Source: a virus (taxonomy: Duplodnaviria > Heunggongvirae > Uroviricota > Caudoviricetes). From it: a DNA stretch of 7,311 nucleotides. The notes below the pieces were generated by a model. The model made no database searches. It had not been told where the DNA came from and worked only from the letters and a program-made list of their open reading frames with translations. Below, piece after piece: positions 51 through 6,996 of the stretch. The stretch lies in the IMG/VR virus record IMGVR_UViG_2541047433_000022. One strand, given 5' to 3'. Each line of letters begins with the position of its first letter. Position 1 is the first letter of the stretch. The position numbers and the translations under genes are program-made.

Positions 51-605
51 TCAAAAAGCAATAACTTTTTTCTCTATACCAAAAGCCATAACCATTGGTT
101 TGTACAAAATAAATTCTGCCACCTTTAGCCAATGCTCAATGCGTCTTTCACAGGTTCTTAAACTCCATTCCGGATGTGCATCATTCAGCAGTTCAGCCAT
201 TTTGCGCTTAGTCATCCCCCGCCCCACATAACGCTGACTCAGAACATTGAGCAGCCCGGGATAACCTGCCAGTACTTCACCAATAACCCTGTCGATTATT
301 AACGCCTCTGAATCGGTACAATGCACCAGCCAGCTTTTTTGCTTGCCGTTGATCATATCCCGCAAAAAAGCCTCAAGTTTAGGTTTGTCCAGACCTGCTT
401 TTTTCATCCTCCGGAGCGCCTCGTTAATTGCCGTTTTTGTCAGCTTTTTAGAGGTCAGCAACTGGTTGAACATATTTCCCGTCTTACCGCCGCCAATATA
501 CGACCAGCGCCCCCACATACGTAGTTTCCCCTGAATCCAGACACTTTCCAGCGTGGTGAGACGAAGGTGCTCTCCGCTTTTTCCTGTGTTCGTTGGGTAA
601 ATCAT
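51..605 (-). CDS. Putative lambdoid late-gene antiterminator (Q-like) or other nin-region protein, 184 aa
   Basis: Listed ORF 51..725 trimmed to the ATG at 603-605, which forms an ATGA start/stop overlap with the upstream gene (stop 602-604) and follows an AAGGA/GGAG Shine-Dalgarno (revcomp of 612-624). Product is inferred from position (last, tightly coupled gene after DUF1367/DUF1364-type genes) and from memory of the family; not verified by search. Confidence 0.4.
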   Translation of the reverse strand: MIYPTNTGKSGEHLRLTTLESVWIQGKLRMWGRWSYIGGGKTGNMFNQLLTSKKLTKTAINEALRRMKKAGLDKPKLEAFLRDMINGKQKSWLVHCTDSEALIIDRVIGEVLAGYPGLLNVLSQRYVGRGMTKRKMAELLNDAHPEWSLRTCERRIEHWLKVAEFILYKPMVMAFGIEKKVIAF

Positions 606-892
606 AAATAACCGTCCTTTCTCCAGATCTCTTGTGTGCGAAAAACACCTTCTGCATGCATCAGGCGCAATTCTTCTTTGGTGTAATCGCTGGTTTTTAC
701 TCTCCCGTCGATTAAATCGTGGCATGAGTTACAGGCAATCGCTGCCTGCATATCGTGTGGCTTTATCGCTGTTCCGCACGTTCCCGCCAGCCTGTAATGC
801 GCCAGCACAGAGGTTTCGGGATTGTGATTGCAGTAGCCAGGGATTCTGATCTGGCATATCTGGCCTTTAGCCGCTTTACGTAAATTCACCAT
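602..892 (-). CDS. DUF1364 / YbcO-like Cys-rich putative zinc-binding phage protein (putative nuclease), 96 aa
   Basis: Minus-strand ORF with five Cys (C13, C21, C39, C54, C57) plus His in a pattern I recognise as YbcO/DUF1364-like. TAATG stop/start overlap with the upstream gene at 890-894 indicates translational coupling. Confidence 0.6.
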   Translation of the reverse strand: MVNLRKAAKGQICQIRIPGYCNHNPETSVLAHYRLAGTCGTAIKPHDMQAAIACNSCHDLIDGRVKTSDYTKEELRLMHAEGVFRTQEIWRKDGYL

Positions 893-1491
893 TACGCAAA
901 CTCCAGTAGTTGTGCGGCCACATTTTCAACTTCCTCCTGAGAGGAGAATTTACGGAACAGAATCCAGTTCCACAGCACATTCAGTACAGATTTATAAACC
1001 TGCTGAAACTCGACTTCGTCCATATTCGCAAAAGCGATGGATTTTGCCCGACGCCCACGGCTACCGTCCGGATAAATATGCTCGGTGTAAAATCCGGCCT
1101 GAATGGTTACCCACTCGCGGAAAGCCTCAAACGACTTTAGCAACGCCGTATCCCGGGTTCTACGAGTCGCAACGGTGTTAAGGTATTGCTCTGCGGCATC
1201 ACTCAGGGCTGGCGTGTGTTCCCGACCAACTGATTCGCACAGGTAATCAACGAAACCAGACAGCAGTTCTCGTTCGCGAGGCGTGATCGCCCCACCGACC
1301 GGAGTCCAGTAATCGAATCCCAGTTGCAGGAGTTTGAAAAAACGCTTGTGGAATGCGTAGTTACGCACACGCTTAAAATCTGCGTGTATCCACTCACCTA
1401 TTTTGATTTGATGCAGAAAATCGCAACTCTCCGGCGTCGCCGGGAGAAGTAAACCAGAAGAAGTTTGTTTGACCAGTTGTATATGCGCCAT
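892..1491 (-). CDS. DUF1367-family lambdoid nin-region protein, 199 aa
   Basis: Minus-strand ORF, ATG at 1489-1491 preceded by GAGAGATTGAGAA. The sequence (...FFKLLQLGFDYWTPVGG...) resembles DUF1367 proteins found next to DUF1364 and Q genes in enterobacterial prophages. About 53% G+C in a sampled block. Confidence 0.5.
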   Translation of the reverse strand: MAHIQLVKQTSSGLLLPATPESCDFLHQIKIGEWIHADFKRVRNYAFHKRFFKLLQLGFDYWTPVGGAITPRERELLSGFVDYLCESVGREHTPALSDAAEQYLNTVATRRTRDTALLKSFEAFREWVTIQAGFYTEHIYPDGSRGRRAKSIAFANMDEVEFQQVYKSVLNVLWNWILFRKFSSQEEVENVAAQLLEFA

Positions 1492-1910
1492 TTCTCAATC
1501 TCTCGATGGCGCAGTGCAGCAGATGCCAGTTGTTCAAGCTAGCACGCAAATTGTAAACCAGAATGCCAGGAAAAAACAAAACCCGCCGAAGCTGGTTGTG
1601 TGCGGTTGCGTTGAAGTCTCCTAGCCAAAGAGTAGCGGTGACCACTCCCCGCCGATAATCTTAGTTGTTTAATTTCGTAAGCTAACTAGGCTAAAAGCTC
1701 TCTGTTGTCTGCCTGTTGTACAATTAACAAAATGAACAACGAACTAGATATACCAACGCCAGAATGGTGCAACAAATCCCAAACAACACAGCAATGCAAC
1801 AATAACATATGTTATTTTCCTCTCACGGGATTCAGTCCTGAATTCTCATAAAGCTAATCTTTTTTTAAAAACATACTGTTAGATCACATGCACTTTCTTT
1901 CTTAACATCG

Positions 1911-1938
1911 TTGACTTCGCATGCGAAGCGTTTAAAAT
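1911..1938 (+). promoter_or_regulatory. Sigma70-type promoter for the ATPase operon: -35 TTGACT (1911-1916), 16-nt spacer, -10 TAAAAT (1933-1938)
   Basis: Hexamers read directly from the sequence. The predicted start site near 1945 leaves a ~45-nt leader before AGAGAG (1979-1984) and the ATG at 1991. Confidence 0.45.
1915..1928. promoter_or_regulatory. Perfect 14-bp palindrome CTTCGCATGCGAAG overlapping the -35 and filling the spacer; candidate operator
   Basis: The sequence is identical to its reverse complement. Its position inside the promoter is the classic place for a repressor site. No regulator gene was identified in the window. Confidence 0.45.
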
Positions 1939-1990
1939 CAACAATTTGCACTTAAGGTATTTATTTTCCCAAACACATAGAGAGTAAATT

Positions 1991-3382
1991 ATGACTGAGA
2001 ACACGACTCCAACAGCAGACTTTAGTCCTAGTAAAAGATTTTTTGTAAGTATGCTAACTCGAGATATCGACTTAAACGATGCCATACTTGATCTGCTTGA
2101 TAACTGCGTCGATGGGGCTTTACGTACAATAAAAGACACAAAAAAAACTTCAAAACCATATGAAGGATTTTATGCGAAACTTACGATTAATAAAGATGTC
2201 TTTATTATAGAAGACAATTGCGGAGGTATCCCTAAAAGCTTCCGAGAATATGCTTTTAAAATGGGACGACCCCATCAAAAAGAAGAAGAAAATGAAGGCA
2301 CCGTTGGCGTCTATGGTATTGGTATGAAAAGAGCCATTTTTAAAATGGGTAGAGATTGCTCAATACAATCGAATAATCCCGATGGCGCATTCACTGTAGA
2401 TATAACACCTGATTGGATCGATGGTGATGGTTGGAAAATACCGATGCACGAGAGTGACTATGATAACAAAAATCCAACAGGCACAACTATAGAGATAAAA
2501 AAACTCCATTCTAATGTGGCACAAAAATTTAATGAGAGCACATATCTTACTGATCTCTTTTTACAGATAAAACACTCATTGTCATTTATTATTCAAAAAG
2601 GATTTAAAATAGAATTAAATGGAGTTGTTGTTGAACATAATCCGATTAACATCATAACTGATCATTCTAAAATAGAACCATACATATATAAAGCTAAAAT
2701 AGACGATGTTGATATCGATTTAGTTGTTGGCTTCTATAAAAATTTAGAAGATGACAATGATGATGTTTTAGAAAAAAGGAGTTCTGATGATGCTGGATGG
2801 ACTGTCATTTGCAATGACCGCGTTGTTCTATATTGTGATAAGACACATCTCACAGGTTGGGGCTTTGCTAATGTACCAAGGTTTCATACCCAATTTATAG
2901 CAATTTCTGGGGTTGTTCGCTTTACCAGTAAAAACCCAGAAAAATTACCAATAACAACAACGAAACGAGGTGTCGATCTTAGTTCTACATTGTACAATGA
3001 TGTACGAAATAAAATGATTGAAGGGATGATGCATTTTATTCGATTCACCAATCAGTGGAAAGGTGAGCATCTTGAAGAAGGGAAAAAATTACTTAAGTCA
3101 GCTCAGTCACATGAAGCTCAATCTTTATTTGAAATTACCCCACAATCAACTCCAGAAGATAAAAAAAATAACTGGTCCAACCCTAATAGAAACAAAAATG
3201 AGTGGCGATATACACCTAAGCTGCCTACCCCAGTAAAAAAAAGCTCTACTGTACGAATAATCTTCACCAGAGAGAAAGAAGATGTTAAAATTTTATCTAA
3301 ATATTTCTTTGGACATGAAGATGCTAGCGCTTCTGATGTGGGGATGCAATGCTTTGATACGGTGATTGAAGAGGTGAAGTGA
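1991..3382 (+). CDS. GHKL (Bergerat-fold) ATPase, MutL/MORC-like (HATPase_c_3-type) N-terminal domain with an unassigned C-terminal half, 463 aa
   Basis: Three motifs in canonical order: N-box ILDLLDNCVDGA (aa 33-43, nt 2087-2119), G1 box IEDNCGGIP (aa 73-81, nt 2207-2233; compare MutL DNGCGI) and G2 box GVYGIGMKRAIF (aa 106-117, nt 2306-2341). No membrane segment or histidine-kinase dimerisation region precedes the ATPase domain. The C-terminus is Lys/Asn-rich. Confidence 0.8.
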   Translation: MTENTTPTADFSPSKRFFVSMLTRDIDLNDAILDLLDNCVDGALRTIKDTKKTSKPYEGFYAKLTINKDVFIIEDNCGGIPKSFREYAFKMGRPHQKEEENEGTVGVYGIGMKRAIFKMGRDCSIQSNNPDGAFTVDITPDWIDGDGWKIPMHESDYDNKNPTGTTIEIKKLHSNVAQKFNESTYLTDLFLQIKHSLSFIIQKGFKIELNGVVVEHNPINIITDHSKIEPYIYKAKIDDVDIDLVVGFYKNLEDDNDDVLEKRSSDDAGWTVICNDRVVLYCDKTHLTGWGFANVPRFHTQFIAISGVVRFTSKNPEKLPITTTKRGVDLSSTLYNDVRNKMIEGMMHFIRFTNQWKGEHLEEGKKLLKSAQSHEAQSLFEITPQSTPEDKKNNWSNPNRNKNEWRYTPKLPTPVKKSSTVRIIFTREKEDVKILSKYFFGHEDASASDVGMQCFDTVIEEVK

Positions 3383-4371
3383 TGTCTGGACAATACATTC
3401 CCTATCACTTAAGGCATAATAAGTCTATTGATAGAGAGATTTTTCTCGAAAGCCTAAACCTCTTAAGCAAAAGACTAAATATTCAAGAATATACATATAT
3501 AGGTTTTGGTGGTCCGATGCTTGAAGATTTTAGAATCATGCATAATCGTATCGCTCTTTCTGATATGATTTCTCTCGAAGAACAAGAGTCTACTCACATC
3601 AGACAAAAATATAATTTGCCTTATAATTGTATTGATTGTAAGCTAATATCAGCTCATGACTTTATTCTTGATTATAGTTTTTCTAAACCATCAATAACAT
3701 GGTTAGACTATGCCTCCCCGAAAAAAATACAAACGGATCTAGATGATATACACTTACTAAGTACTAAAGTAAGCTCTTTTGATATTTTGAAGGTCACCTT
3801 CCCCATAAATCCTAGTTCTTATTACCAACGTAGAGTTGGAGAAAGTTTAGATATTTTTAAAGAAGCTTTTATTAATTCATTAAAATCATTGCTTGGGAAA
3901 AAGTATCTTGATTTTAATCTTCAGATATCAAATGCAGATCTTTCAGATCGTAAGATTAAAGCTCTTTTAATACGAATTATTACAAACGCTTTTAGATCAG
4001 CAATAGAACGTGGTCTTTCAGGACGTAAGGATAAGATTCAGTATTACCCATTATCCTTAAATCAATATAATGATGGCAGTCATACCATGTTGACAATATC
4101 AGGTTTTTTCTCCTCAGAACAAGAATATATAGAGTTATCTAAGGCATGCGACCTTTCTAACTGGCAATTTTATTCAACAAATTGGGAAGACGTGCAAGAA
4201 ATAGCAATACCAACACTAACAATTAAAGAAAAGATAAATTTAGATAGTAAACTGCCTGATAAAGAAGCATATCAGGCAGCCGCTGAAGAGTTCTCTTTAA
4301 ACGAAAATGAACGGGATAACTATTATAAATACTATAGGTTATACCCTAACTTCCAAAGAATTATGGTTTAA
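3382..4371 (+). CDS. Hypothetical protein, 329 aa, operon partner of the GHKL ATPase; function unknown (candidate effector)
   Basis: The ORF track starts at GTG 3379, but ATG 3382-3384 overlaps the ATPase stop (TGATG, 3380-3384), so the two genes are translationally coupled. Same ~30% G+C as the ATPase gene. I found no clear PD-(D/E)xK, HNH, HEPN or Walker motif by eye. Confidence 0.7.
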   Translation: MSGQYIPYHLRHNKSIDREIFLESLNLLSKRLNIQEYTYIGFGGPMLEDFRIMHNRIALSDMISLEEQESTHIRQKYNLPYNCIDCKLISAHDFILDYSFSKPSITWLDYASPKKIQTDLDDIHLLSTKVSSFDILKVTFPINPSSYYQRRVGESLDIFKEAFINSLKSLLGKKYLDFNLQISNADLSDRKIKALLIRIITNAFRSAIERGLSGRKDKIQYYPLSLNQYNDGSHTMLTISGFFSSEQEYIELSKACDLSNWQFYSTNWEDVQEIAIPTLTIKEKINLDSKLPDKEAYQAAAEEFSLNENERDNYYKYYRLYPNFQRIMV

Positions 4372-5490
4372 ATATTCGGGCTGTACTCTTTTATTTAATA
4401 AATTGTACAGCCCCTTTAATATATATTCAGCAACTATTGGTGACACGCTATTTCCTATTTGTCTGAAACTATGCCATTTAGTTACATGAAAGCGAAACCA
4501 ATCAGGGAAGCCTTGTAATCTAGCAGCTTCTCTTGGTGTAATCACTCTTGGATGATAAGGGTGGATCGGCCTGACGGCTTGAAAGCTTCCTTTATCTCTA
4601 GCGGTTCCCGCCCTTAAAGTCGGGCAAAAACCATTTGGATCTAATCTTGTAGATCTTGAAATTTTATCAGTTTCCCCAAAAGATAAGGAAGCATAACGCT
4701 CTTGGACGATTTTGCTATGTAATGTTCCGGTACATCCAGATATGATATTATTTTTTAACTTAGCGATCGATTCTGTATCACCAACATTCCGAGGGATCTG
4801 CCCCCATAATTTTTCATAAAATCCCCCTTTTCGATCTTTTTTAATTGTTCGCCAACTCTCAGAGTCTGATTGCCAATTGGCATCGATAATATCTGGTAAT
4901 CCATACAAAGCATCTTTTACAGTAACCGGATCAATCATTTTAGGCATAAATACTTCATCTGAAATATCAAGCTTCAATGATTTTTTTACACCGATAAAAA
5001 AATATCTAGTTCGAATAGTTGGAGCACCATAATCAGATGCTTTTACCTTGATGGGATCAAGAATATCATAATCACCGCTAACCAAATTAAATGCTTTATT
5101 TCTAATGCCAGAATATTTCTCTTGCATAATACCTGGAACATTTTCTGCCAAAAAGAATAATGGCTGTAATTCTGATACTAAACGGTAGAAATGCATGTAA
5201 AGCTGATTCCTGCTATCATCAGGATTCCCCTTGCCTATTGAACTAAATCCTTGGCACGGAGGACCGCCAATAATACCATCTATGGGCATATCGTTTTTAA
5301 AAAAACCCTTAATTATTTCTGCATTTAGTAAAGAAACATCTTCTTGGACGTGCAAACTTCTTGGAAAATTAATTGCGTGAGTATTAATAGCATGTTGATC
5401 AATTTCAACTGCCATTTTAACATCAAATCCAGCACGTGCAGCACCAAGACTTAGACCTCCAACGCCAGAAAACAAATCTATTACATTCAT
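4339..5490 (-). CDS. DNA (cytosine-5)-methyltransferase, 383 aa
   Basis: Canonical motifs in order: I DLFSGVGG (aa 5-12, nt 5455-5478), IV GGPPCQGFS (PCQ = aa 78-80, nt 5251-5259), VI FLAENVPG (ENV = aa 116-118) and X QIGNSVSP near the C-terminus. A variable target-recognition region lies between VIII and IX. The 3' end overlaps the partner gene by 33 bp (4339-4371). Confidence 0.9.
   Translation of the reverse strand: MNVIDLFSGVGGLSLGAARAGFDVKMAVEIDQHAINTHAINFPRSLHVQEDVSLLNAEIIKGFFKNDMPIDGIIGGPPCQGFSSIGKGNPDDSRNQLYMHFYRLVSELQPLFFLAENVPGIMQEKYSGIRNKAFNLVSGDYDILDPIKVKASDYGAPTIRTRYFFIGVKKSLKLDISDEVFMPKMIDPVTVKDALYGLPDIIDANWQSDSESWRTIKKDRKGGFYEKLWGQIPRNVGDTESIAKLKNNIISGCTGTLHSKIVQERYASLSFGETDKISRSTRLDPNGFCPTLRAGTARDKGSFQAVRPIHPYHPRVITPREAARLQGFPDWFRFHVTKWHSFRQIGNSVSPIVAEYILKGLYNLLNKRVQPEYLNHNSLEVRV
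4378..4413 (+). terminator. Hairpin (9-bp stem GGGCTGTAC / GTACAGCCC, 18-nt AT-rich loop) followed by CTTTAATATATATT; possible terminator of the plus-strand operon
   Basis: Inverted repeat read directly, 7 nt after the partner stop codon. It lies inside the last codons of the convergent MTase gene. The long loop and interrupted T-tract make it a weak terminator candidate. Confidence 0.3.
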
Positions 5491-5522
5491 ATAGTTGCAA
5501 CGTCTCTTATTAGTTTCTATGT

Positions 5523-5531
5523 ATTATAACA
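5523..5531 (-). promoter_or_regulatory. Extended -10 promoter element (TGT-TATAAT on the minus strand) upstream of the MTase gene
   Basis: Revcomp of 5523-5528 is TATAAT and is preceded by TGT (5529-5531). It sits ~32 nt upstream of the MTase ATG (5488-5490), with AAGAGA as a weak ribosome-binding site. No good -35 is present, which is consistent with an extended -10 promoter. Confidence 0.35.
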
Positions 5532-5742
5532 CAACTGTTCTTGATGTTTTAACCCCATAAGATAACCTCATAAAGGCTATCCCTTGAAAATACCGGATCG
5601 CATAAATTTAATCTTTCAAAACTACTTGTCTATTAATCGAGCAATTTAAGGTTGTTTTAGTCATGTCGATACCGACATAGTTAACTAAACCCATTTCATC
5701 GTCCAACAAATGGGGGTAATACACTTTGATTTATAGTCGGGT

Positions 5743-5778
5743 GGGTTTTTCTCTATCTGCCTTTGGTGTTCATGCCCA
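5743..5778. repeat. Perfect 11-bp inverted repeat CTATCTGCCTT / AAGGCAGATAG with a 14-nt loop at the right border of the low-GC insert
   Basis: Read directly from the sequence. It is not followed by a U-tract on either strand, so it is not a typical intrinsic terminator. Function unknown. Confidence 0.5.
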
Positions 5779-5921
5779 AGGCAGATAGCCTCAAGCACCC
5801 GCAGCAATTCTACTTAACTCTCCTTTTCCCGCAAACCGTTTTTATCTCCAGCGACAAATCGAATACACAACCAGCACCACCGCCATTACTGTTCCTACAT
5901 TTGCGAATGCTTCAGGCCAGG

Positions 5922-6317
5922 TCATTGATTCACCTTCTGCTCAATATTTTTAAGGTCATTTTCCGCATACAGTATTGCAGTTCTTGCTGCCCGCAACCGT
6001 GCTTTGGTGTTCTTTTCTTCACGCTCGAGGCTGGCAACAGATTCTCGGAGCTGATCGTGTCTGTTATGAAGCTGTCTAATCTCTCTCACCACAGCCTCAC
6101 CATCGTTCGCACACCGCAGAACATACTGAAAAGGGTCCACAACACATCCGCACTGCAAGCACAGGATAACGTGATCCTGTTCATGAACCTCAATGGCCCG
6201 ATGCTTACAGCTCTGTTGTGTGTAGTTTTTTCTGCCAGTTACTGTAATGTTCAGCAGCTTCTCTTCATCGCGCTTTGGCTGCACCAGTGTGATGATATTA
6301 TCGCCTTCATTTTCCAT
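5922..6317 (-). CDS. Hypothetical phage protein, 131 aa, with a Cys cluster (possible zinc ribbon) and C-terminal coiled-coil-like region
   Basis: Listed ORF 5922..6392 trimmed to the ATG at 6315-6317, which overlaps the upstream stop (TGATG) and follows a perfect AGGAGGT (revcomp of 6324-6330). Cys pattern: SCKH...ILCLQCGC...LRCAND. Confidence 0.6.
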   Translation of the reverse strand: MENEGDNIITLVQPKRDEEKLLNITVTGRKNYTQQSCKHRAIEVHEQDHVILCLQCGCVVDPFQYVLRCANDGEAVVREIRQLHNRHDQLRESVASLEREEKNTKARLRAARTAILYAENDLKNIEQKVNQ

Positions 6318-6976
6318 CAGTTCACCTCCTGCGGCGGTTCTGGTAGCGGCATCCAGTGTGACGGTTTCCACGACGCACCAGGAATTATCCACCCATCATT
6401 AGCGTCAGGATGCCCCGGGATGTAAGTCGCCCACTTCATTCGCCAGTCACCTTTCCTGTCAAACTCCACGGCAACAAGAACGGCTGTTTTGGTATCCGGC
6501 ATTCGCTCACTACAACTTATCCAACCATCCGGAGTTACCGGAGAGTTGCCAGACAGCGCATTCTGCAACCGTTCCAGCTTAACGTATTCCTGAACCCTGT
6601 TTCCGTCGCACGCCTGAAGCCATTGCTCAGCCTTTTGCGCATCAGTGTGAAAGGCACAAGTGCGACCGTCATCAAATTGCATTTCGTAGAGGTTAGCAAT
6701 CTGTTCAAACTGCGTGTGTGGCAACTTGTAAGTTTGGCTTACGAGTTCGGCTTCCAGTTCTGCTATGCGCTTCTCTGATGCTTCAAGTAACGCCTGCTTA
6801 TCGCGTAGCGCTTCTTCCAGTTCAGCAACATGGCATTCACTATCAATAAGGTTGTTCTCTGCTGCTCCCAGCTCAACTCTCAGCTTCCCAACCGTAAGCG
6901 CAATCTCCTCGTTCTCCTGGTCGCGGCGTTTGATGTATTGCTGGTTTCTTTCCCGTTCATCCAGCAGTTCCAGCAC
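6317..6976 (-). CDS. C-terminal part of an Ead/Ea22-like protein with a DUF551-type end (...SHWMPLPEPP), 219 aa as listed
   Basis: The listed start is a GTG. The same frame stays open upstream to 7033 and reads ...NAEFIAEANPATVLELLDE, which looks like genuine protein sequence. Coiled-coil-like heptads (AELEEALRDKQALLEASEKRIAELEAEL) precede the conserved W/P-rich C-terminus. Confidence 0.5.
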   Translation of the reverse strand: MLELLDERERNQQYIKRRDQENEEIALTVGKLRVELGAAENNLIDSECHVAELEEALRDKQALLEASEKRIAELEAELVSQTYKLPHTQFEQIANLYEMQFDDGRTCAFHTDAQKAEQWLQACDGNRVQEYVKLERLQNALSGNSPVTPDGWISCSERMPDTKTAVLVAVEFDRKGDWRMKWATYIPGHPDANDGWIIPGASWKPSHWMPLPEPPQEVN

Positions 6977-6996
6977 GGTAGCCGGGTTAGCCTCTG

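Follow-up and report, generated by a model that had tools for sequence, protein, structure and literature searches.

The 7,311-nt stretch of viral DNA analysed here (IMG/VR virus record IMGVR_UViG_2541047433_000022; Caudoviricetes; hereafter called the window) carries a cassette of three genes, which encode a GHKL ATPase of the MORC type (463 aa; 1991–3382, plus strand), a partner protein with a class I S-adenosylmethionine (SAM)-dependent methyltransferase fold (329 aa; 3382–4371, plus strand), and a C5 cytosine DNA methyltransferase, here termed Dcm (383 aa; 4339–5490, minus strand). Sequence comparisons support the three genes as a conserved mobile unit, which very probably has a defence role. 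GHKL ATPases encoded beside cytosine methylases were described in a computational survey in 2008, and no name was found for the triad of a MORC ATPase, a PF20553 partner, and Dcm. Our preferred reading, to which we give somewhat better than even weight, is that the triad represents a self-contained, horizontally mobile, methylation-based immunity cassette that works by a restriction-modification (R-M)-like logic, most akin in spirit to that of BREX and DISARM.

Linkage was searched from the partner, the ATPase, and Dcm in turn. The first-pass annotation of the window had treated the three genes as a single module, and their co-occurrence elsewhere was borne out from all three seeds. The partner-seeded set consisted of 62 loci in one-genome-per-species contigs, in which an ATPase homologue was located directly upstream of the partner in 62 and a full-length Dcm gene was present in 50. 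These loci are distributed among Gamma-, Beta-, and Deltaproteobacteria, Cyanobacteria, Acidobacteriota, Latescibacterota, Poribacteria, Planctomycetota, Verrucomicrobiota, Bacteroidota, Nitrospirales, and Myxococcota, with one further locus in a Methanoregulaceae archaeon. With the ATPase as the seed, the partner gene adjoined in 67 of the 69 metagenome loci that could be evaluated and in 61 of 63 viral loci, and Dcm was found within 3.5 kb in 42 of 43 metagenome loci and in all 60 viral loci; two ATPase genes (L096 and L145) have no partner. In Dcm-seeded viral contigs, the ATPase-partner pair accompanied, in convergent orientation, all 47 Dcm relatives of at least 59% identity and none of the 12 relatives of 46% identity or less. 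A search for further conserved neighbours yielded only a Vsr gene (19 of the 62 partner-seeded loci, but not the window) and antisense shadow open reading frames (ORFs).

The order of the ATPase and partner genes is fixed, and the gap between the stop codon of the former and the start codon of the latter is 0 nt or less in 140 of 158 non-identical pairs. Dcm behaves as a separate unit, the position and orientation of which vary: in the same set of 158, a Dcm convergent with the pair was counted 63 times, a same-strand Dcm 54 times upstream and 11 times downstream of the pair, and a divergent Dcm 3 times, so that the convergent layout seen in the window is the commonest arrangement in the family. 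Pairwise sequence identities of the ATPase and partner are strongly correlated (r = 0.86), and those of either protein with Dcm less so (0.51); by this measure, the ATPase and partner co-evolve. In Escherichia coli O157:H7 F6294 (NZ_CP038372.1; 6392–6895 of the extracted locus), a single deletion has removed two thirds of the partner gene, at its 3′ end, together with the whole Dcm gene but left the ATPase gene intact. No other E. coli genome has a damaged cassette or lacks Dcm, and this single case would agree with selection against the pair when its methylase is absent. A decayed copy was also found in pSymA of Sinorhizobium meliloti (4731–13952 of that locus), where approximately 3 kb of inserted DNA lies between the ATPase gene and an N-terminally truncated partner gene and the Dcm gene is located 3 kb beyond. 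In six other loci (L010, L013, L014, L018, L027, and L057), a second HATPase_c_3 protein of 546–610 aa, sharing 22–26% identity with the cassette ATPase, is encoded next to Dcm, so that two different GHKL ATPases lie on either side of one methylase; Pfam gave no match for the C-terminal half of this second protein.

The ATPase matches HATPase_c_3 in Pfam (37.5 bits against a cut-off of 25; E = 2.9e-9) and contains the motifs of GHKL ATPases of this type, namely DLLDNCVD (residues 34–41), DNCGG (75–79), GVYGIG (106–111, within GVYGIGMKR), and GT (164–165), which are invariant in 25 relatives. In a fold comparison, its nearest structural neighbours were MORC3, SMCHD1, and MORC2, with a match that spans the ATP-binding domain and the S5 transducer domain. 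An S5-fold transducer domain, in which a basic residue is conserved, comes after the GHKL domain, and the MORC-specific S5 motif GhXhhpXXRhl, by which Iyer, Abhiman and Aravind (2008, PMC2292703) distinguished true MORCs, is present as GWTVICNDRVV (269–279) and was matched by a regular expression in 134 of 135 family members. The GHKL motifs and MORC-like form reported in the first-pass annotation thus stand, albeit with two departures from the canonical pattern: Asp34 replaces the usual catalytic Glu of GHKL motif I, and motif II reads DNCGG instead of DxGxG. Because the GhXhhpXXRhl motif is present, the protein was filed, on the basis of its motifs, as a true prokaryotic MORC and not as a paraMORC (types 1–5), and no nuclease or TIR domain was found in it by Pfam. 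Its last 110 residues make up a helical region of low conservation. Searches of PDB sequences with profiles of the ATPase and the partner returned noise or a single weak match to MORC3.

The partner, previously described as a protein without recognisable motifs, does belong to a known family. Its entire length is covered by Pfam PF20553 (Methyltransf_35; residues 2–329; E = 2e-89; 300.4 bits against a cut-off of 27), which all 21 of its aligned relatives also match. Its predicted structure (predicted local distance difference test score, 89) has the seven-stranded fold of class I SAM-dependent methyltransferases, and three residues at the positions typical of this class, G43 in the glycine loop, E66 as the acidic residue after strand 2, and D109 after strand 4, are conserved in at least 95% of 135 sequences. 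The sequence and the model together suggest that the partner probably binds SAM. The N-terminal tail (IPYHLRxNKxxxR) is disordered and is also at least 95% conserved in the same 135 sequences. The protein is labelled as ‘putative O-methyltransferase’ in Pfam and ‘O-methyltransferase’ in RefSeq, but the ‘O-’ in these labels gets no support from our results: none of the characterised O-methyltransferase families was matched by sequence, a Pfam search with 21 relatives at E ≤ 10 gave no second family, and the nearest structures in the fold comparison were mostly RNA base N- and C-methyltransferases. Both a KDKE 2′-O-methyltransferase tetrad and a PD-(D/E)xK nuclease motif were sought and rejected, the candidate residues being too poorly conserved or wrongly spaced. 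The partner family comprises approximately 2,100 clusters at 50% identity, and the top 150 relatives, which were inspected for fusions, are all stand-alone proteins of 280–381 aa. No nuclease, helicase, TIR, or other effector domain was detected in either the ATPase or the partner by Pfam, PADLOC, NCBIfam, or fold comparison, and both proteins are listed in PHROGs as families of unknown function.

The assignment of the third gene to the canonical C5 methyltransferases was confirmed. Dcm matches PF00145 (E = 2.6e-61; 208 bits) and the PADLOC model MTase_II (2e-98), and it contains FSGVG (7), PPCQ (77), ENV (116), TIRTR (158), and GNSV (346), with a variable region at 180–280. It is nearly identical over residues 1–367 to PDB 3g7u (E = 1e-254), which has been deposited as a ‘cytosine-specific methyltransferase’ and whose title refers to a methyltransferase of prophage CP-933R. 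We found no functional study tied to this structure and no recognition site for the cassette Dcm in methylome papers. Since the ATP-binding and SAM-binding motifs are kept, the ATPase, the partner, and Dcm all look like active enzymes.

The cassette occurs repeatedly in regions associated with defence. In P2-like prophages of 46 E. coli genomes, the interval from the portal gene gpQ to the replication endonuclease gene gpA contains a cassette copy and no other cargo; this interval has been defined as a hotspot of anti-phage systems (Rousset 2022, PMC9122126). The copy in E. coli elppa5 (NZ_CP083503.1; 6001–9516 of the extracted locus) shows 78% DNA identity to a P2-like viral contig, and its ATPase and Dcm are approximately 43 and 65% identical, respectively, to those of the window; thus, E. 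coli carries two cassette lineages on two kinds of prophage. In plasmid pR24_2 of Microvirga terrae (4576–6990 of that locus), the pair is embedded in a DISARM-like operon in the order drmD, an MmeI-like methylase gene (drmMI), the pair, drmA, a DUF1998 gene (drmB), and drmC, with overlapping gene ends and without Dcm. A Myxococcota metagenome-assembled genome (MAG; L034, 3657–5992) likewise contains an SNF2 helicase gene, the pair, and DrmA-like and DUF1998-like genes without Dcm, and in a viral contig (L160, 19–2339) the pair, again without Dcm, is followed by genes for Vsr, a PLD-SNF2 fusion, and an MmeI-like methylase. The 13.6-kb Pf inovirus PfAC20 of Pseudomonas (PP058144.1) carries the ATPase, partner, and Dcm genes at one end (280–3711) as a single co-directional operon, where they occupy a quarter of the genome; a second, short cytosine methylase gene is present at 5438–6082 of the same phage. 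A defence role is inferred because the cassette sits in the gpQ-gpA hotspot, in DISARM-like operons, at the end of a Pf inovirus, and, in the window, in an insert of the nin region.

This insert (1544–5742, approximate edges; no strand) is 4.2 kb long and is located in a Rac-like lambdoid prophage. Its GC content (0.29–0.40 across approximately 1600–5800) is lower than that of the flanks (0.45–0.53) in the composition profile, homology to Rac-like and Stx phages is lost at approximately 1543, and Stx-phage homology returns at 5743. According to the ORF list and the RefSeq annotation, the insert contains the three cassette genes only. The low GC content, the coordinates and lengths of the ORFs, and the translational coupling given in the first-pass annotation all agreed with the ORF list, the sequence, and the composition profile: the stop codon of the ATPase gene overlaps the start codon of the partner gene in TGATG (3380–3384), the length of 329 aa for the partner being counted from the ATG at 3382, whereas the ORF program placed the start at a GTG at 3379. 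In both the ORF coordinates and the RefSeq annotation, the partner and Dcm genes, which are convergent, share 33 nt at their 3′ ends (4339–4371). A promoter-like site (TTGACT-16-TAAAAT; 1911–1938, plus strand) lies 53 nt 5′ of the ATPase start and is a candidate promoter for the two-gene operon, and another (TTAAAA-18-TGxTATAAT; 5523–5552, minus strand) lies 33 nt 5′ of the Dcm start. Both are consensus matches only, and such sites are not enriched in the region (19 against 18 ± 5 in shuffled sequence), which leaves the separate promoter previously ascribed to Dcm unconfirmed.

DNA identical to positions 1600–5800 (100% over this range) is present in 172 of 5,426 complete E. coli genomes, mostly of serotypes O157:H7 and O111 and including EDL933, with the same three genes annotated by RefSeq. 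The prophage gene set comprises intR, xisR, recET, kilR, sieB, and capsid and terminase genes, and the prophage is integrated beside ttcA. In O157:H7 PA20, the cassette lies between nin-type genes (DUF1367, DUF1364, and DUF1133) and the replication, immunity, recET, and intR genes. The cassette in the window is an oppositely oriented insert of the lambdoid nin region, with the pair antisense and Dcm sense to the phage early operon; the orientation of the pair resembles that of lysogen-expressed cargo. At the left insert junction, a 99-nt segment (1516–1614) is 90% identical to DNA annotated as ‘mobile element protein’ in phages Evi and vB_EcoS-640R1 and may be the remnant of an insertion sequence marking the arrival of the cassette. 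The right junction is spanned by a match to the sok antitoxin RNA that falls short of the Rfam gathering score (RF01794; 5676–5800, minus strand; 50.2 bits where 59 are required; E = 3.6e-9). A hairpin with 14-nt arms (5753–5788) and an ORF for a hydrophobic peptide of 27 aa (5842–5925, minus strand) are present there, with no clear Hok-like peptide.

The first-pass annotation had proposed an R-M-like anti-phage module. The immunity part of this proposal is in line with the conservation of the mobile unit and with its defence-associated locations, but a classical restriction arm is not. A cognate restriction endonuclease with a nuclease fold, as expected of type II R-M systems, was not found in the window, and the Dcm genes have been exchanged between related pairs. 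Thus, loci L057 and L007 share 83% identity in the ATPase and 88% in the partner but only 45% in Dcm and 26% in its target-recognition region, and the relationship between L106 and L118 is similar. Classical type II R-M was rejected on these two grounds. Locus L007 (6616–13709; a Rhodoferax MAG) contains two divergent pairs, one convergent and one co-directional with the single Dcm gene that they flank; both partners match PF20553, and the proteins of the second pair are 33 and 23% identical to those of the window. In the DISARM-like contexts, the methylase neighbouring the pair is an adenine enzyme, and pairs without a nearby methylase were found in cyanobacterial loci among NADH dehydrogenase genes and in Parabeggiatoa loci. 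Because related pairs accompany unrelated Dcms, adenine methylases, or no methylase, the pair cannot carry a recognition specificity that is matched to one methylase.

The immunity cassette that we favour would therefore use its methylase as both site recogniser and self mark, as suggested by the absence of a nuclease domain and the tolerance of the pair to Dcm exchange. Dcm would mark resident DNA with 5-methylcytosine and would probably also supply site recognition, by analogy with the methylase subunit of type III and BREX systems. The ATPase and partner, expressed from one translationally coupled operon and probably forming a complex, would act as an ATP-dependent, probably SAM-binding sensor and effector on incoming unmarked DNA, with a MORC dimer being loaded via the partner onto DNA left unmethylated. 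The partner may serve as an adaptor pairing with the DNA methylase or as a SAM-dependent sensor; heterodimers of active and inactive methyltransferases are common. The effector step could be a clamping or compaction of unmethylated DNA that blocks its replication or transcription, as in eukaryotic MORCs, or a hand-over to a host nuclease. This step is the weakest part of the model, clamping by a bacterial MORC being proposed by analogy. In a bolder version, immunity would be free of nucleases altogether: a MORC dimer, loaded by the methyltransferase-like adaptor where the linked methylase finds unmethylated sites, would topologically clamp and silence the invading DNA, and the cassette would represent a prokaryotic forerunner of the eukaryotic link among MORCs, cytosine methylation, and silencing. 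We consider this version rather unlikely. If true, however, the restriction of DNA without a nuclease would constitute a new effector principle for bacterial immunity.

The two methyltransferase folds and the lack of a nuclease would also be expected if the cassette were a DNA-modification machine serving its mobile element in anti-restriction or epigenetic marking, with both methyltransferase-fold proteins modifying DNA and the MORC clamp acting as a loader or processivity factor. The frequent carriage by phages (64 viral contigs, a Pf inovirus, and P2-like and lambdoid prophages), the indifference of the pair to the accompanying Dcm, and the orientation of the window Dcm, which is sense to an early operon where lambdoid phages often carry methylases, are all consistent with such a machine. 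We nevertheless regard it as improbable, since the window pair itself is oriented against lytic transcription, lysogen-expressed exclusion genes are the main occupants of the P2 gpQ-gpA locus (PMC9122126), and the pair is widespread in chromosomal contexts unrelated to phages; in addition, it is found inside DISARM-like operons that already have their own methylase, and some solo pairs have none.

Tight linkage and mobility, together with a convergent layout typical of R-M addiction modules and the joint loss of the partner and Dcm in the F6294 deletion variant, could instead point to a selfish addiction or regulatory module, which would have no anti-phage role and would stabilise its carrier element by post-segregational killing or epigenetic regulation. 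Such a module requires a toxic activity, and none is recognisable here; pairs lacking a linked methylase do not fit it, and the locations in defence hotspots and DISARM-like operons point to immunity, so we judge this explanation to be slightly less probable still. The occasional presence of Vsr raises the question of a repair accessory, in which a MutL-like ATPase and its partner would aid very-short-patch repair of the T:G mismatches arising by deamination of 5-methylcytosine at Dcm sites. This appears very unlikely: the ATPase has the signature motif of MORCs, its closer structural relatives are MORC3, SMCHD1, and MORC2, most loci, including the window, lack Vsr, a methyltransferase-fold partner has no role in known very-short-patch repair, and the pair also occurs with the adenine methylases of DISARM-like operons or without any methylase.

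The cassette is common, being found in many bacterial phyla, one archaeon, and 172 plus 46 complete E. coli genomes, yet it was missed by the defence-system models that we searched. In agreement with the first-pass annotation, no named system, PADLOC or NCBIfam model, or experiment was found to match the three genes. Literature searches found no mention of PF20553, Methyltransf_35, or the three RefSeq accessions and no description of the triad as a GHKL and cytosine methyltransferase system or as bacterial MORC defence; the papers on the EDL933 defence island and on YprA/ARMADA contain nothing on the locus. The E. coli unit combines a genuine MORC ATPase with cytosine methylation in three genes that can be cloned, and a crystal structure of its Dcm already exists. 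It thereby provides a simple model for MORC ATPases that read or act on DNA methylation and makes directly testable the 2008 prediction that MORCs originated in methylation-based conflict systems.

That prediction was computational: in the searchable text of the 2008 survey (PMC2292703), neighbourhoods of MORC or paraMORC genes and methylase genes are predicted to form part of R-M-like systems. The cassette resembles these prokaryotic neighbourhoods in having a GHKL-S5 ATPase with intact ATP motifs beside a cytosine DNA methylase, sometimes with Vsr. It differs in its partner, as those described in the searchable text are superfamily 2 helicases, nucleases of the restriction endonuclease or HNH fold, and TIR domains, with no mention of a PF20553-type protein. 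Compared with the eukaryotic MORC2, MORC3, and SMCHD1, the cassette ATPase lacks CW, coiled-coil, and chromatin-reader domains, shares approximately 15% identity, and has Asp for Glu in motif I.

Among the systems with defined genes, the signature genes of DISARM (DrmA and DrmB, with or without DrmC), BREX (PglZ and BrxC), MZA (MzaA–MzaE), Ambrosia (receiver domain and HNH), and GHKL-Shedu (DUF4263) were all absent from the window in PADLOC, Pfam, and NCBIfam searches. MzaB of MZA and VcSduA/paraMORC3 of the Shedu type resemble the cassette ATPase as MutL/MORC-like GHKL ATPases and serve in anti-phage defence, but the MzaB model scores 12 bits against the cassette (cut-off, 850), and the DUF4263 nuclease domain of VcSduA is not found in it. 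Ambrosia (AbrR/A/B/C/D), the anti-phage activity of which has been demonstrated (bioRxiv 10.1101/2025.09.30.679545), similarly combines a DNA methyltransferase, a GHKL-family ATPase, and a small partner. Its methylase, however, is an N6-adenine enzyme, its ATPase is histidine kinase-like with a receiver-domain partner, and it includes an XRE regulator and an HNH nuclease, whereas the cassette consists of a MORC ATPase, a methyltransferase-fold partner, and a C5 methylase, with no nuclease. Loci related to Ambrosia that combine HEF_HK (of the HATPase_c_3 family), the receiver-like partner Response_reg_2, and a C5 methyltransferase were described in 2021 (PMC8011034). BREX and DISARM comprise five to eight genes as against three, and none of PglZ, BrxC, DrmA, DrmB, and DrmC is encoded in the window. 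Nevertheless, they share with the proposed working of the cassette the use of methylation as a self mark, a requirement for ATPases, and the lack of a site-matched classical restriction endonuclease step, and the ATPase-partner pair is itself embedded in DISARM-like operons in two lineages.

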